The notes under the pieces were generated by a model. It was given only the letters and a program-made list of their open reading frames with translations. It was not told the DNA's origin and ran no database searches. This document shows positions 5,661 to 12,659 of a stretch of DNA of 64,000 nucleotides, piece after piece. How positions within the stretch are numbered: the stretch's first letter is position 1; each line of letters opens with the position of its first letter. Both the position numbers and the translations under genes were made by a program. The stretch is taken from NCBI RefSeq assembly GCF_988242995.1, contig NZ_OZ547043.1, one strand, 5' to 3'.

Positions 5661-6491
5661 ATGTTTGTTCCATTTCTCATTATGTTGCGCGAAGGACTTG
5701 AAGCCGCGCTGATTGTCAGTTTGATTGCCAGCTATCTTAAGCGTACCCAGCGAGGCCGATGGATTGGTGTGATGTGGATTGGCGTGTTGCTTGCCGCTGC
5801 GTTGTGCCTGGGCTTGGGTATCTTCATTAACGAAACCACCGGCGAATTTCCGCAAAAAGAACAGGAACTGTTTGAAGGTATCGTGGCGGTGATCGCCGTG
5901 GTGATCCTTACCTGGATGGTTTTCTGGATGCGCAAAGTGTCGCGCAACGTCAAAGTACAACTGGAGCAGGCAGTCGATAGCGCATTGCAGCGTGGAAATC
6001 ATCATGGCTGGGCGCTGGTGATGATGGTCTTTTTTGCCGTTGCAAGGGAGGGGCTGGAGTCGGTCTTTTTCCTGCTGGCGGCGTTTCAACAAGATGTCGG
6101 GATTTGGCCGCCGCTGGGTGCAATGCTCGGTCTTGCTACAGCCGTGGTGCTTGGCTTCCTGCTCTACTGGGGCGGTATTCGCCTCAATCTTGGTGCATTT
6201 TTTAAATGGACCAGTCTGTTTATTCTCTTCGTCGCCGCTGGGCTGGCAGCTGGTGCCATTCGCGCATTTCATGAAGCCGGATTGTGGAACCACTTTCAGG
6301 AAATCGCCTTCGATATGAGCGCGGTGCTCTCAACTCACTCGCTGTTTGGCACGCTGATGGAAGGGATTTTTGGCTATCAGGAAGCGCCAAGTGTCAGCGA
6401 AGTCGCCGTCTGGTTTATTTATCTCATCCCAGCGCTGGTGGCATTTGCGCTGCCGCCACGTGCAGGGGCGACAGCGTCTCGCTCCGCGTAA
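5661..6491 (+). CDS. efeU: EfeU ferrous iron permease (FTR1 family), intact reading frame
   Basis: Single uninterrupted frame; ATG at 5661 (ORF track begins at in-frame GTG 5652); multi-TM protein with REGLE-type motifs. Confidence 0.9.
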   Translation: MFVPFLIMLREGLEAALIVSLIASYLKRTQRGRWIGVMWIGVLLAAALCLGLGIFINETTGEFPQKEQELFEGIVAVIAVVILTWMVFWMRKVSRNVKVQLEQAVDSALQRGNHHGWALVMMVFFAVAREGLESVFFLLAAFQQDVGIWPPLGAMLGLATAVVLGFLLYWGGIRLNLGAFFKWTSLFILFVAAGLAAGAIRAFHEAGLWNHFQEIAFDMSAVLSTHSLFGTLMEGIFGYQEAPSVSEVAVWFIYLIPALVAFALPPRAGATASRSA

Positions 6492-6548: not shown

Positions 6549-7676
6549 ATGACCATTAACTTCCGCCGTAACGCATTGCAGTTGAGCGTGGCTGCGCTGT
6601 TCTCTTCTGCTTTTATGGCTAACGCCGCCGATATTCCGCAAGTCAAAGTCACCGTGACGGATAAGCAGTGCGAACCGATGACCATTACGGTTAACGCCGG
6701 GAAAACACAGTTCATTATTCAGAACCACAGCCAGAAGGCGCTGGAGTGGGAGATCCTCAAAGGCGTGATGGTGGTGGAAGAGCGAGAAAATATCGCCCCT
6801 GGCTTTAGCCAGAAAATGACGGCGAATTTACAGCCTGGCGAATACGATATGACCTGCGGTCTGCTGACTAACCCGAAAGGGAAGTTGATCGTTAAAGGTG
6901 AAGCAACGGCGGATGCGGCGCAAAGCGATGCGCTGTTAAGTCTTGGTGGTGCAATTACTGCATATAAAGCGTATGTCATGGCGGAAACCACGCAGCTGGT
7001 GACCGACACCAAAGCCTTTACCGACGCTATTAAAGCAGGCGATATCGAAAAAGCAAAAGCACTGTATGCGCCGACGCGCCAGCACTATGAGCGCATTGAA
7101 CCGATTGCTGAACTGTTCTCCGATCTGGATGGTAGCATTGACGCCCGTGAAGATGATTACGAGCAAAAAGCCGCCGATCCAAAATTCACCGGTTTCCACC
7201 GTCTGGAAAAAGCATTGTTTGGCGATAACACCACCAAAGGGATGGATAAGTATGCCGACCAGCTTTATACCGATGTGGTCGATTTGCAAAAACGCATCAG
7301 TGAACTGGCTTTCCCTCCGTCAAAAGTGGTCGGCGGTGCAGCCGGACTGATTGAGGAAGTGGCAGCCAGCAAAATCAGCGGTGAAGAAGATCGCTACAGC
7401 CACACCGATCTGTGGGATTTCCAGGCTAACGTTGAAGGCTCGCAGAAAATTGTCGATCTGCTGCGTCCACAACTGCAAAAGGCCAACCCGGAACTGCTGG
7501 CAAAAGTCGATGCCAATTTCAAAAAGGTCGATACCATTCTGGCGAAATACCGTACTAAAGACGGTTTTGAAACCTACGACAAATTGACCGATGCTGACCG
7601 TAATGCGCTGAAAGGGCCGATTACTGCGCTGGCGGAAGATCTGGCGCAACTTCGCGGTGTGCTGGGGCTGGATTAA
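6549..7676 (+). CDS. efeO: EfeO periplasmic iron-binding component
   Basis: 375 aa with N-terminal signal peptide; matches recalled EfeO. Confidence 0.94.
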
Positions 7677-9275: not shown

Positions 9276-10340
9276 ATGGTAACGTCCTGTACTGGACATG
9301 TTTTAGATAATCAGCGCGCCACCACTCGCGGAGATTTCTCCTCCGGTAGCAACTTCGTCACTTTGTATTTTCAACCTCATCCTTTCTTTTCATGTGTTAC
9401 CGACGCCGTAAACGGTGCGCGTAGCCGTTTTTCGGCATTTTATCCAAAAGCAAACTATGGCTTACAAGGAAGCCAACCCTCTGATGTTCGTGCGCATAAT
9501 CGCGCTGCCAACGGCGCGTGTGATGAATACAAACAACTCAAGGTGCTCTCCATGGGAAGACAAAAAGCAGTGATCAAAGCTCGTCGCGAGGCAAAACGTG
9601 TGCTGAGACGGGATTCGCGCAGCCATAAGCAGCGTGAAGAAGAATCGGTCACCTCGCTTGTGCAGATGAGCGGCGTAGAAGCCATTGGTATGGCCCGCGA
9701 CAGTCGCGATACCTCGCCCATCCTCGCGCGAAATGAAGCGCAATTGCACTATCTGAAGGCTATTGAGAGTAAGCAGCTGATATTCGCCACGGGCGAAGCC
9801 GGGTGCGGAAAAACCTGGATCAGCGCAGCAAAAGCGGCAGAGGCCCTGATACATAAGGATGTCGACAGGATTATCGTCACCCGTCCAGTTCTGCAAGCCG
9901 ATGAAGATCTTGGCTTCTTACCTGGAGATATCGCAGAAAAGTTTGCTCCCTATTTTCGTCCGGTCTACGACGTGCTGGTCCGGCGCTTAGGGGCTTCCTT
10001 TATGCAGTACTGCCTGCGACCGGAAATAGGGAAGGTGGAAATTGCGCCGTTCGCCTATATGCGTGGACGTACCTTTGAAAATGCAGTCGTCATTCTTGAC
10101 GAGGCGCAGAATGTGACTGCCGCGCAAATGAAAATGTTTTTAACCCGCCTCGGGGAGAACGTGACGGTTATCGTCAACGGTGATATCACGCAATGCGATT
10201 TGCCTCGCGGCGTGCGCTCCGGATTAAGTGACGCGCTGGAACGTTTCGAAGAAGATGAAATGGTCGGGATCGTCCGATTCGGTAAAGAGGATTGCGTACG
10301 TTCGGCACTTTGCCAACGTACGCTACATGCATACAGTTAA
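9276..10340 (+). CDS. phoH: PhoH, phosphate-starvation-inducible ATP-binding protein
   Basis: 354 aa, Walker A GEAGCGKT; matches recalled PhoH. Confidence 0.95.
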   Translation: MVTSCTGHVLDNQRATTRGDFSSGSNFVTLYFQPHPFFSCVTDAVNGARSRFSAFYPKANYGLQGSQPSDVRAHNRAANGACDEYKQLKVLSMGRQKAVIKARREAKRVLRRDSRSHKQREEESVTSLVQMSGVEAIGMARDSRDTSPILARNEAQLHYLKAIESKQLIFATGEAGCGKTWISAAKAAEALIHKDVDRIIVTRPVLQADEDLGFLPGDIAEKFAPYFRPVYDVLVRRLGASFMQYCLRPEIGKVEIAPFAYMRGRTFENAVVILDEAQNVTAAQMKMFLTRLGENVTVIVNGDITQCDLPRGVRSGLSDALERFEEDEMVGIVRFGKEDCVRSALCQRTLHAYS

Positions 10341-10358
10341 GTGTATTATCGGTACAGA

Positions 10359-10388
10359 GCCCGGGCGAACCGGGCTTTGTTTTATTTC
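10359..10388 (+). terminator. Rho-independent terminator after phoH
   Basis: GCCCGG GCGAA CCGGGC hairpin followed by TTTGTTTTATTT. Confidence 0.7.
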
Positions 10389-10902
10389 ATTAACAGCAAA
10401 GACTTTCACTTCAGGTTAACGTTCAGGGGGGCGACTTTGAGCGTGTTGATAAGCTGAAATGAATTCTGGTTTAGATACTCTTACCAGGCATTTTTCGTCA
10501 TAGCACCCGACCAGTGTAATGCCGCCAGCGCGGAGAGTTTTTTGCCTATCTTTTTCCAGCCATTCAACCTGTACAGGAGGTCTGGTGCCAATTTTGCGTA
10601 TGAGGTTTAATCAGCAATGGGCCATAATTTGACTGACTGATTAACACCGAATATATTCTCCTGATTTTATTTTTTAGGGATAATATTAAAAATATAAGGT
10701 TAATCTTAATTAATTCTTCAGCTAATATTGTGTGTTGTTATTTTTTGTGGACGGCAAGCCGCAATGGCAAAATAGGTATGGTTGTAATAATCAAAACATG
10801 ATACTAACTATATATAGATCGTTGAATTGTTGGCATGTAACTCGCTACAGCGAGTAGCGTTAGTAATGAAATATAATCAACATGGATAGGTGAAGATTAA
10901 TT

Positions 10903-11589
10903 ATGAGCTTTATGGTTTTTGTAACTTGTTTGACAATTGCATTTGTCGCCGGTTTTGCTGTTGCCAGAAAATTGACACTCCGAAAAGTTGCCTCATCGGT
11001 AATCATCACTAGATCGCAACCAGTCCCTTCCTCTGCAACTTCCCCTGCGGCTAAGGCGTCGACAAGGAGCTATACACCGCAGAAAACCTATCGTGACTCT
11101 CGTTGGCAAGAACGAGATGAGTTGTTCCAGGGAATGGTTGCCGAAGGTATTTTATTGGAAGGAAAAGAGTGGTTAATTACGCGTTGTGAAAAAATTTATT
11201 TTGATAATCTGGAGAAATGGTTTGGACATTATTGTCATATCCATTGCCAGGTCTCTCTGGGGCGCTTGATCAACTTTCCAGAACAACCCGAGTTTAGCGA
11301 AGAAGAAAGAAAGCGTTTCTTTGCAATTTATAATGGAATGGCAATGGATTATGTTCTGGTTTCAAAGAAGAACAATAAAATAGTCTGTGTTATTGAGCTG
11401 GATGATCCGAGTCATGAAAGGGCAGATCGCATTATTCGTGACCGTTGGTTGAATACGATTATGACTATTGCACGGGTGCCTTTTGTACGAGCTTCTGTCA
11501 CTAAATTGGATGAAATCCCTCCGGTCTGGGATACCCGTGACAAAATTCGCCCATTAGCCGCGGCGACAAAGGGTGAACCGTTGCATTAA
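10903..11589 (+). CDS. Hypothetical membrane-anchored protein with C-terminal PD-(D/E)xK-like nuclease-type domain (resembles DUF2726 / NERD-like fold); orphan accessory gene
   Basis: 228 aa ORF; AGGTGA RBS about 10 nt before ATG; N-terminal hydrophobic helix (aa 4-24), S/T/P-rich linker, C-terminal block MDYVLV..VIELDDPSHERADRIIRDRWL..VPFVR; visibly AT-rich; not recognised as a K-12 gene. Confidence 0.65.
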   Translation: MSFMVFVTCLTIAFVAGFAVARKLTLRKVASSVIITRSQPVPSSATSPAAKASTRSYTPQKTYRDSRWQERDELFQGMVAEGILLEGKEWLITRCEKIYFDNLEKWFGHYCHIHCQVSLGRLINFPEQPEFSEEERKRFFAIYNGMAMDYVLVSKKNNKIVCVIELDDPSHERADRIIRDRWLNTIMTIARVPFVRASVTKLDEIPPVWDTRDKIRPLAAATKGEPLH

Positions 11590-11596
11590 CTAAGTA

Positions 11597-11674
11597 CCCC
11601 GGTCGGGGCTCCTCATCCCCCCGGTGTGTGCAATATACGAAAAAAAAGCCCGTACTTTCGTACGAGCTCTTCTT
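11597..11674. repeat. Copy 1 of a 78-bp module that equals the serX downstream terminator region
   Basis: Near-identical (3 differences) to 12489-12565, which sits directly 3' of intact serX; contains CCCCGGTCGGGG and CGTAC..GTACG hairpins and an A8/T8 run. Confidence 0.7.
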
Positions 11675-12385
11675 GTGCACAGAAAACCCCCAGCTAGGCT
11701 GGGGGTTCCGGAAAGCTTTCAGCTTTGAGCCAGTTATTAAAACCCCTTTTGATTTGTTAAAACACCTTGCGGTCTGGCAACTGCAAGTGTCAAACAAGAA
11801 ATCAAAAGGGGGTCCCAATGGGGGACGAAAAGAGCTTAGCGCACACCCGCTGGAACTGTAAATATCACATAGTTTTTGCGCCGAAATACCGAAGACTGGC
11901 GTTTTACGGAGAGAAGCGTAGGGCGATAGGCAGTATTTTGAGAAAGCTGTGTGAGTGGAAAAGCGTACGGATTCTGGAAGCAGAGTGCTGCGCAGATCAT
12001 ATCCATATGCTTGTGGAAATCCCACCCAAAATGAGCGTATCCGGCTTTATGGGATATCTGAAAGGGAAAAGCAGTCTGATGCTTTACGAGCAGTTTGGGG
12101 ATTTGAAATTCAAATACAGAAACAGGGAGTTCTGGTGCCGAGGGTACTATGTCGATACGGTGGGTAAGAACACGGCGAAGATACAGGACTACATAAAGCA
12201 CCAGCTTGAAGAGGATAAAATGGGAGAGCAGTTATCGATTCCCTATCCGGGCAGCCCGTTTACGGGCCGTAAGTAACGAAGTTGGATGCAAATGTCAGAT
12301 CGTGTGCGCCTGTTAGGGCGCGGCTGGTAACAGAGCCTTACAGGCGCATTTGAAAAACCTCCGGCTATGCCGGAGGATATTTATT
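11675..12385 (+). mobile_element. IS200-like insertion sequence (IS200/IS605 family), about 0.71 kb
   Basis: Single 152-aa HuH transposase; subterminal hairpins CCCCCAGC-TAG-GCTGGGGG (11687-11705) and CCTCCGGC-TAT-GCCGGAGG (12358-12376); no terminal inverted repeats; size as expected for IS200; exact ends approximate. Confidence 0.8.
11818..12276 (+). CDS. tnpA: IS200 transposase TnpA (Y1 HuH)
   Basis: 152 aa MGDEKSLAHTRWNCKYHIVFAPKYRR..HIHML..RGYYVDTVG; HuH motif and catalytic Tyr region; ORF track extends upstream to an in-frame start at 11767. Confidence 0.9.
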   Translation: MGDEKSLAHTRWNCKYHIVFAPKYRRLAFYGEKRRAIGSILRKLCEWKSVRILEAECCADHIHMLVEIPPKMSVSGFMGYLKGKSSLMLYEQFGDLKFKYRNREFWCRGYYVDTVGKNTAKIQDYIKHQLEEDKMGEQLSIPYPGSPFTGRK

Positions 12386-12391
12386 TAAATA

Positions 12392-12488
12392 TGGCGGTGA
12401 GGGGGGGATTGACTCGCTTCGCTCGCCCTGCGGGCAGCCCGCTCACTGCGTTCACGGTCTGTCCAACTGGCTGTCGCCAGTTGTCGAA
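12392..12488 (-). repeat. Degenerate copy of serX 3' end (19-bp exact direct repeat 12392-12410) plus 78 bp of unrelated sequence; att-like scar
   Basis: TGGCGGTGAGGGGGGGATT is identical to the 3' end of intact serX at 12572-12590; upstream part does not fold into a tRNA. Confidence 0.6.
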
Positions 12489-12565
12489 CCCCGGTCGGGG
12501 CTTCTCATCCCCCGGTGTGTGCAATATACGAAAAAAAAGCCCGTACCTTCGTACGAGCTCTTCTT
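12489..12565 (-). terminator. serX downstream hairpin/terminator region (copy 2 of the 78-bp module)
   Basis: On the serX sense strand the tRNA is followed by GCTCGTACGAAGGTACGGGC hairpin and T8. Confidence 0.65.
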
Positions 12566-12571
12566 TAAAGA

Positions 12572-12659
12572 TGGCGGTGAGGGGGGGATTCGAACCCCCG
12601 ATACGTTGCCGTATACACACTTTCCAGGCGTGCTCCTTCAGCCACTCGGACACCTCACC
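12572..12659 (-). tRNA. serX: tRNA-Ser (serX type)
   Basis: 88 nt, sense strand GGTGAGGTGTCCGAGTGGCTGAAGGAGCACGCCTGGAAAGTGTGTATACGGCAACGTATCGGGGGTTCGAATCCCCCCCTCACCGCCA; long variable arm typical of tRNA-Ser, encoded CCA. Confidence 0.9.

Follow-up and report, generated by a model that had tools for sequence, protein, structure and literature searches.

A membrane-anchored DUF2726 protein encoded beside phoH in Escherichia coli as a candidate nuclease acting on DNA at the inner membrane

In F and SXT, the exclusion genes (TraS/TraT in F and Eex in SXT) are found in the region just after TraG, and the exclusion proteins described are not known to act as nucleases. It has been reported that DUF2726 is a PD-(D/E)xK family of unknown function that has undergone multiple horizontal transfers (Steczkiewicz et al. 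2012, PMC3424549), and DUF2726 REase domains have been found fused to AbiJ N-terminal domains (Anantharaman et al., PMC3710099). In the literature searched, no function was assigned to DUF2726 and nothing appeared under PF10881, its Pfam accession. SNIPE, a membrane-bound anti-phage nuclease, combines an N-out transmembrane (TM) segment with DUF4041 and GIY-YIG domains and cleaves lambda DNA during injection; DUF4041 is its DNA and tape-measure-binding domain, and the protein without its TM segment is toxic and cleaves host DNA (Saxton et al., bioRxiv 10.1101/2025.11.03.685801).

A DUF2726 gene was analysed here within a 64,000-nucleotide stretch of DNA (the window), which is part of an E. coli chromosome and has the order efeO-efeB-phoH, the DUF2726 ORF, IS200, serX and ghrA-ycdX-ycdY-ycdZ-csgG. 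The ORF (10903..11589 with the stop codon, + strand, 228 aa, ATG start) encodes a single-pass membrane anchor, a linker and a DUF2726 domain. An earlier note on this DNA had called the protein an orphan, but its exact sequence is already in NCBI (for example, EHM3042178.1, 'DUF2726 domain-containing protein'), where the 90%-identity cluster of the protein has 2,055 members. That the gene is annotated as DUF2726, and that this family is of the PD-(D/E)xK type, is already known.

Compared with the described systems, the window protein agrees with Pfam DUF2726 in HMM match, motif and fold, and RefSeq already uses this name; in its subfamily, the domain is preceded by an additional conserved helix, RDELFxGM. 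Vsr, DUF559 (NGO0050, PDB 3hrl) and the I-Bth0305I domain are near in structure without a sequence-level match. These proteins are soluble, whereas the window protein is predicted to be membrane-anchored, and it has no link to Dcm or mismatch repair. On the other hand, SNIPE resembles it as a single gene with a single N-terminal TM segment, an outside N-terminus and a cytoplasmic nuclease (features that are predicted for the window protein), but the latter lacks DUF4041 and GIY-YIG, is half the size and has no PADLOC match, and the two are analogous only, not homologous. IncF 'YihA' and other plasmid DUF2726 proteins have the same TM anchor followed by DUF2726 with its motif, but share no more than about 26-29% identity with the window protein and are encoded by plasmid backbone genes rather than by the chromosome. 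As for the exclusion genes, relatives of the window gene in MPF_G ICEs also lie just after TraG; a sequence relationship with F TraS/TraT or SXT Eex is not expected.

The phoH locus in Escherichia and Salmonella

The ORF has the good ribosome-binding site that had been described for it, a Shine-Dalgarno-like AGGTGA (10888..10893, + strand) being read in the sequence 9 nt before the ATG. A TATAAT hexamer (10872..10877, + strand), which begins a short distance further upstream and lies 25 nt before the ATG, may represent a -10 element, and it recurs upstream of the Salmonella orthologue. It was not called in the promoter scan of the region, in which the top match upstream of the ORF was TTGACT-17-TATATT at 10629-10657. 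Downstream of phoH, a terminator-like hairpin (10354-10380) and then a 563-nt AT-rich gap (GC 0.383) were found; because of these, and with no same-strand partner present, the ORF is monocistronic, in agreement with the earlier view that it has no operon partners. It is also AT-rich relative to its neighbours, as had been noticed, with a GC content of 0.434 (GC3 0.393), which is lower than that of phoH (0.531) and of the window (0.508). A functional link to phoH was rejected on the basis of the terminator, the gap and the absence of phoH from the ICE, T6SS and plasmid contexts described below. Among the neighbours of the ORF (phoH, IS200, serX and ghrA), no cognate methyltransferase adjoins it, and without one the protein does not constitute a type II restriction-modification enzyme. 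In the same region, a strong Rfam match to the Yersinia antisense sRNA Ysr251 (193 bits, 10142-10335, - strand) was observed antisense to the 3' end of phoH.

The gene is located in a 1.2-kb allele-specific segment (10384..11595, no strand), which extends from the phoH terminator to tandem RtT-like repeats of about 180 bp beside serX (11596-11674 and 12381-12590). The repeats score 41 bits against Rfam RtT, slightly below the gathering score; in other strains they carry the RefSeq label 'RtT sRNA', and their copy number is strain-variable. Inserted in them, downstream of serX, is IS200 (706 bp, 11675-12380), which contains an Rfam STnc490 match (11685-11808) and the TnpA ORF (about 11818-12276), and the tRNA-Ser(GGA) gene serX is found at 12572-12659 on the minus strand. 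IS200 is a strain-specific insertion that is missing in other strains with the same DUF2726 allele.

Among complete E. coli genomes, the gene was found in 1,049 of 5,426 (about 19%), with 1,043 full-length, which is consistent with its earlier classification as accessory rather than core. K-12 has at the same site a 10.9-kb pgaDCBA-dgcT-IS3-ymdE-ycdU block (locus L002, 3100-13962), and pgaCD was detected in 4,402 of the 5,426 genomes (4,346 full-length). At every locus inspected, the phoH-serX interval contained either the 1.2-kb DUF2726 segment or the 10.9-kb pga block. These two segments behave as alternative alleles, their genome counts being complementary and their exclusivity being seen at the inspected loci. 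The window strain has no pgaABCD, dgcT or ycdU and hence lacks the PNAG biofilm polysaccharide locus.

The arrangement phoH-DUF2726-(...)-ghrA was also found in E. albertii (88% aa identity) and in the cryptic Escherichia sp. MOD1-EC7003, and the order putA-putP-phoH-DUF2726-IS-ghrA-ycdX-...-csgG is widespread in Salmonella enterica, the representative genome of which is without the DUF2726 gene. Between E. coli and Salmonella, the DNA identity of the DUF2726 gene (78.9%) equals that of phoH (79.0%), which, together with the conserved position, suggests that the gene is ancestral at the phoH locus; the pga block would then most simply be a later replacement in most E. coli. In the Escherichia/Salmonella lineage, this chromosomal gene is old and dispensable, and in about 80% of E. 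coli the pga-dgcT-ycdU block has replaced it. The earlier note had placed it beside an IS element at a tRNA hotspot; IS200 and serX are indeed located downstream, but to read the gene as an orphan or a recent island gene is wrong, as it is present at the same site downstream of phoH in E. albertii, the cryptic Escherichia and Salmonella.

Two features of the Salmonella loci were examined separately. The orthologue is widely annotated as a protein of 151 aa that starts from an internal Met, but the complete ORF of 219 aa, anchor included, is intact (loci L086-L088, 8797-9456); such N-terminally truncated forms were dismissed as gene-call artefacts, since the upstream in-frame sequence encodes the anchor. 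In some Salmonella, a T6SS island (Hcp, ImpA_N/VasL, DUF1240) is present between the DUF2726 gene and ghrA (locus L003, 10246-16660). Because other Salmonella have phoH-DUF2726-IS-ghrA without a T6SS there, the island is considered to be an insertion at the serX hotspot, and its adjacency was rejected as a functional link. The literature searched contained nothing combining SPI-19, T6SS and phoH. A plasmid-borne orthologue was also rejected, as the three 'plasmid' records with >90% identity are chromosome-sized sequences (0.7-4.9 Mb) that had been filed as plasmids.

The ORF was intact at every locus inspected and was annotated as intact in all 39 of the full-coverage rows listed (of 1,043 genomes with full-length DNA coverage), and truncated or frameshifted copies occur elsewhere (P0013, 76-aa fragments). 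By the Nei-Gojobori method, divergent E. coli alleles gave dN/dS values of 0.23-0.29, and the comparison with Salmonella gave a value of about 0.04 for the domain. The DUF2726 ORF is a real gene and not a chance ORF, and it is under purifying selection where present.

Predicted fold and membrane anchor

The sole Pfam match of the 228-aa protein was DUF2726 (PF10881; aa 90-205, E=2.8e-18, score 66.3, model 3-116/126), which places a Vsr/DUF559-like PD-(D/E)xK domain at codons 90-205 (11170..11517, + strand) based on Pfam, conserved residues and fold. Of the DUF2726/NERD likeness that had been proposed, the DUF2726 part was thus recovered, whereas the NERD Pfam HMM gave no match at E<=10. The Pfam models of Vsr (PF03852) and DUF559 (PF04480) did not match, the NCBIfam scan gave no match, and the PADLOC-DB v2 scan returned 0 families at E<=1, with no Abi model matched. 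The PHROGs match was one family of no known function (phrog_14167). Searching the PDB by sequence, either with the single protein or with a 97-sequence profile, yielded no meaningful match.

An AlphaFold2 model based on a 97-sequence alignment had a mean pLDDT of 88, with values above 90 across residues 70-220. It comprises a helix (residues 3-29), a low-confidence linker (30-70), a short helix (71-80) and an alpha/beta domain that extends to residue 222 and has the restriction-endonuclease-like alpha/beta core fold of the PD-(D/E)xK superfamily. Both the HMM search and the structure prediction agree on this fold, as expected from the earlier reading of the sequence. When the model was used in Foldseek, BstEII and TnsA were matched with a probability of 0.98. 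Structurally nearest to the DUF2726 domain are Vsr, DUF559 and the I-Bth0305I-type catalytic domain. E96, E165, H171 and D180 do not vary among the 18 close or the 97 broader homologues compared, and D149, D167, D168, R176 and R179 are conserved in at least 90% of the 97 homologues. Owing to this conservation, the putative active site (D149, E165-x-D167-D168-x2-H171), which includes the previously suggested catalytic candidates D149, E165 and D167, is intact, and the protein contains the motif D...ExDD..H that characterizes the DUF2726 family.

The N-terminal hydrophobic helix recognized in the earlier note (codons 3-29, 10909..10989, + strand) was supported by both the AlphaFold2 model and the hydropathy profile, in which the best 19-aa Kyte-Doolittle window was aa 3-21 (mean 2.43). 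The helix starts at residue 3, with 0 K/R before it and 4 in the next 15 residues, and this pattern, by the positive-inside rule, predicts an N-out/C-in anchor with the N-terminus outside and the nuclease-fold domain in the cytoplasm. The same K/R pattern was observed in 16 of 17 full-length close relatives. A cleavable signal peptide (AVA-R) was considered and rejected because the N-region carries no positive charge, the K/R cluster is located after the helix and AxA is not kept in homologues.

The helix is followed by a fast-evolving tether (codons 30-70, 10990..11112, + strand), whose S/T/P-rich composition, already noticed earlier, and low pLDDT (53-65) indicate a disordered linker; in the comparison with Salmonella, dN was 0.45 in the first 55 aligned codons and 0.098 in the remainder. 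A conserved subfamily-specific helix with the RDELFxGM motif (codons 71-89, 11113..11169, + strand) then precedes the Pfam domain. The gene product is predicted to be a small single-pass inner-membrane protein with a 2-residue N-terminus and the remainder in the cytoplasm, in which a tether of about 40 residues and the short conserved helix lead to the DUF2726 domain. A similar organization is common in the family: a strongly hydrophobic segment is present in the first 60 residues of 102 of 126 full-length family representatives, and K/R residues are more numerous after than before this segment in 100 of these 102, so that the predicted cytoplasm-facing anchor is a general trait of DUF2726 proteins.

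Relatives on conjugative elements, phages and T6SS clusters

Close relatives of the window protein are 37-54% identical to it and have the same anchor-linker-domain plan. In ICEs of the TIGR037xx 'integrating conjugative element' type, the gene is located a few small genes after TraG_N and before Integrase_1. The position after TraG_N was found in five ICE loci, represented by an E. coli paralogue (10 genomes), Dickeya, Pectobacterium and two metagenomic contigs. In an MPF_G ICE (locus L008, 4692-5974), three genes separate TraG_N from the DUF2726 gene. They encode a 2-TM protein of 137 aa, which is read from the opposite strand, a lipoprotein of 187 aa with the lipobox LTAC, and a TM peptide of 52 aa, and their layout recalls, by analogy, exclusion-gene regions.

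More distant members, 26-37% identical to the window protein, are encoded by conjugative-plasmid backbone genes and by Vibrio filamentous phages. By using a plasmid copy as query, matches were found in 4,522 of 72,556 PLSDB records (about 6%), 4,012 of which were typed conjugative; this enrichment largely reflects one backbone gene of abundant IncF plasmids. The IncF gene order is traI-traX-finO-hyp-hyp-DUF2726-hyp-PLD nuclease-repA, at the distal end of the tra region (locus L093, gene 5806-6456), and this copy is named yihA in some annotations, with no function given. The MPF_F plasmid pLD91-1 carries TM-DUF2726 copies at 6857-7381 and 9527-10036 (locus L090); the ExD...H motif has been lost from the second copy, which is located three genes after TraG_N. 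In Vibrio filamentous phages, including Vaf1, a TM-DUF2726 gene with an intact motif lies directly after a pIV-like export gene; in the Vibrio phage 10N.286.55.B4_PE003 (Tubulavirales), the TM-DUF2726 gene is located at 5794-6435 (locus L091).

T6SS operons contain a further group of relatives. Citrobacter, Rahnella and Pantoea have the gene inserted between tssA and tssF, and in a fourth contig it adjoins tssF (L024 9821-10483; L021; L028; L083), with gaps of 18-28 nt at the insert. In the related T6SS cluster of E. coli MEW, tssA and tssF are adjacent without a DUF2726 gene (locus L080), and TssE is encoded elsewhere in the Citrobacter cluster, implying that the DUF2726 gene is an insert rather than a core T6SS part. 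A role as a core or conserved accessory component of the T6SS was rejected, given that the window locus has no T6SS genes and that the E. coli MEW cluster is without the gene. In Erwinia, the gene is directly upstream of a VgrG-DUF2169-PAAR toxin island. As a separate observation, VgrG in the E. coli MEW cluster is followed by genes for a VRR-NUC domain protein and a DUF3396 protein (L080 18832-21348), which could be a nuclease effector/immunity pair.

In a neighbour-joining tree (no support values), the phoH-linked clade was placed beside the T6SS clade, and the ICE forms were basal and paraphyletic. No shared partner gene was found, as no neighbour family was present in more than 3 of 50 distant DUF2726 loci, suggesting that the gene works alone or with non-adjacent partners; this accords with the stand-alone character ascribed to it earlier. 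In the literature searched, neither the near-universal N-out anchor of DUF2726 proteins nor their links to conjugative elements, T6SS and inoviruses were found described.

Possible roles at the membrane

The favoured reading, to which we give a probability of roughly 40%, is that the protein is a nuclease which, held at the membrane by its tether, acts on DNA there and serves exclusion or defence. SNIPE, which is analogous but unrelated, is an experimental precedent for such a mechanism. The DUF2726 domain would be an active Mg-dependent DNA endonuclease, the flexible membrane tether would keep this nuclease off the nucleoid, and DNA appearing at the cytoplasmic face of the membrane would be cut. 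The target could be DNA entering by conjugation or phage injection, with exclusion or defence as the outcome. Self and non-self would thereby be told apart by location, as in SNIPE, with an unrelated nuclease and without DUF4041. A conflict over incoming DNA is plausible and is supported by the relatives on conjugative elements, filamentous phages and T6SS clusters. For the defence-type function proposed in the earlier note, no PADLOC or NCBIfam match was obtained, and the surroundings of the gene in E. coli do not form a defence island. Moreover, the T6SS brings no DNA into its producer, so that the T6SS context does not follow from the exclusion/defence reading and is the observation that this reading explains least well.

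Carriage by conjugative elements could equally reflect a role in the element's own transfer. The family might assist the transfer machines that span the envelope (conjugative T4SS and T6SS) as an accessory factor, whose membrane-anchored domain processes or binds nucleic acid for the transfer, establishment or regulation of the element itself rather than attacking foreign DNA, the E. coli copy being domesticated or left over. Such a factor would fit the fixed place after TraG_N in the five ICE loci, the distal location in the tra region of IncF plasmids and the tight packing with tssA and tssF in Citrobacter, Rahnella and Pantoea and beside tssF in the fourth locus, where the gaps are 18-28 nt. 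It is nevertheless considered unlikely: no T4SS or T6SS partner accompanies the E. coli, E. albertii and Salmonella copies at their locus, and yet these are under purifying selection, the related E. coli T6SS cluster has adjacent tssA and tssF genes and lacks the DUF2726 gene, and no neighbour recurs across the 50 distant loci.

An effector of the abortive-infection or toxin type is decidedly unlikely. In this case, the nuclease would be inactive at the membrane and would be freed or activated on infection or envelope damage (for example, by tether cleavage), and would degrade both the cell's own DNA and that of the invader. No sensor domain is present, only about 2 residues are predicted to lie outside the membrane, no antitoxin or partner gene was found and no Abi model matched, although a long protease-accessible disordered tether, an intact catalytic motif, the toxicity of SNIPE without its TM segment through cleavage of host DNA, and the fusion of DUF2726 to AbiJ-type N-terminal domains (PMC3710099) would all be in keeping with such an effector.

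The conserved residues also bear on whether the domain cleaves at all. That the protein is a non-catalytic membrane-tethered binder of nucleic acid (RAP-like), anchoring DNA or RNA at the membrane for instance, appears very improbable in view of E96, D149, E165, D167/D168 and H171, which are invariant or nearly so in the 97 homologues and present in this protein, and of the equally good scores of the catalytic domains of Vsr, DUF559 and homing endonucleases. Least probable of all is that the gene has no function and is the remnant of an old mobile element at the serX hotspot, in the course of slow loss: its absence from about 80% of E. coli and from the representative genome of S. enterica, its AT-richness and the occasional truncated or frameshifted copies (P0013, 76-aa fragments) are outweighed by the intact ORF in 39/39 full-coverage rows listed, the dN/dS values (0.23-0.29 within E. 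coli; for the domain, about 0.04 in the comparison with Salmonella) and its retention at the locus since the Escherichia-Salmonella split.

The reading of a tethered nuclease for exclusion or defence may be extended to the whole family, which is a possible but doubtful generalization. N-out DUF2726 proteins would then be nuclease-based factors of entry exclusion or immunity, a widespread class that has gone unrecognised, by which conjugative plasmids (IncF 'YihA'), MPF_G ICEs, filamentous phages and some T6SS clusters destroy rival DNA crossing the inner membrane. The phoH-linked gene would be a domesticated host copy, and the class would represent a second, independent invention of the SNIPE principle, directed mainly against conjugative or single-stranded DNA entry.

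If the gene were inert, it would be merely another annotated DUF. Even if the exclusion/defence reading does not hold, the locus records a clean replacement of an ancestral DUF2726 gene by the pgaABCD-dgcT-ycdU block in most E. coli. If it is true, incoming DNA would meet a nuclease barrier encoded by a very common and ignored backbone gene, whose relatives are carried by about 6% of PLSDB plasmids, of which nearly all are conjugative, by many ICEs and by a fifth of E. coli genomes. Such a barrier would bear on plasmid incompatibility and exclusion, on the spread of resistance plasmids and on the distinction between self and non-self DNA by its location in the cell.
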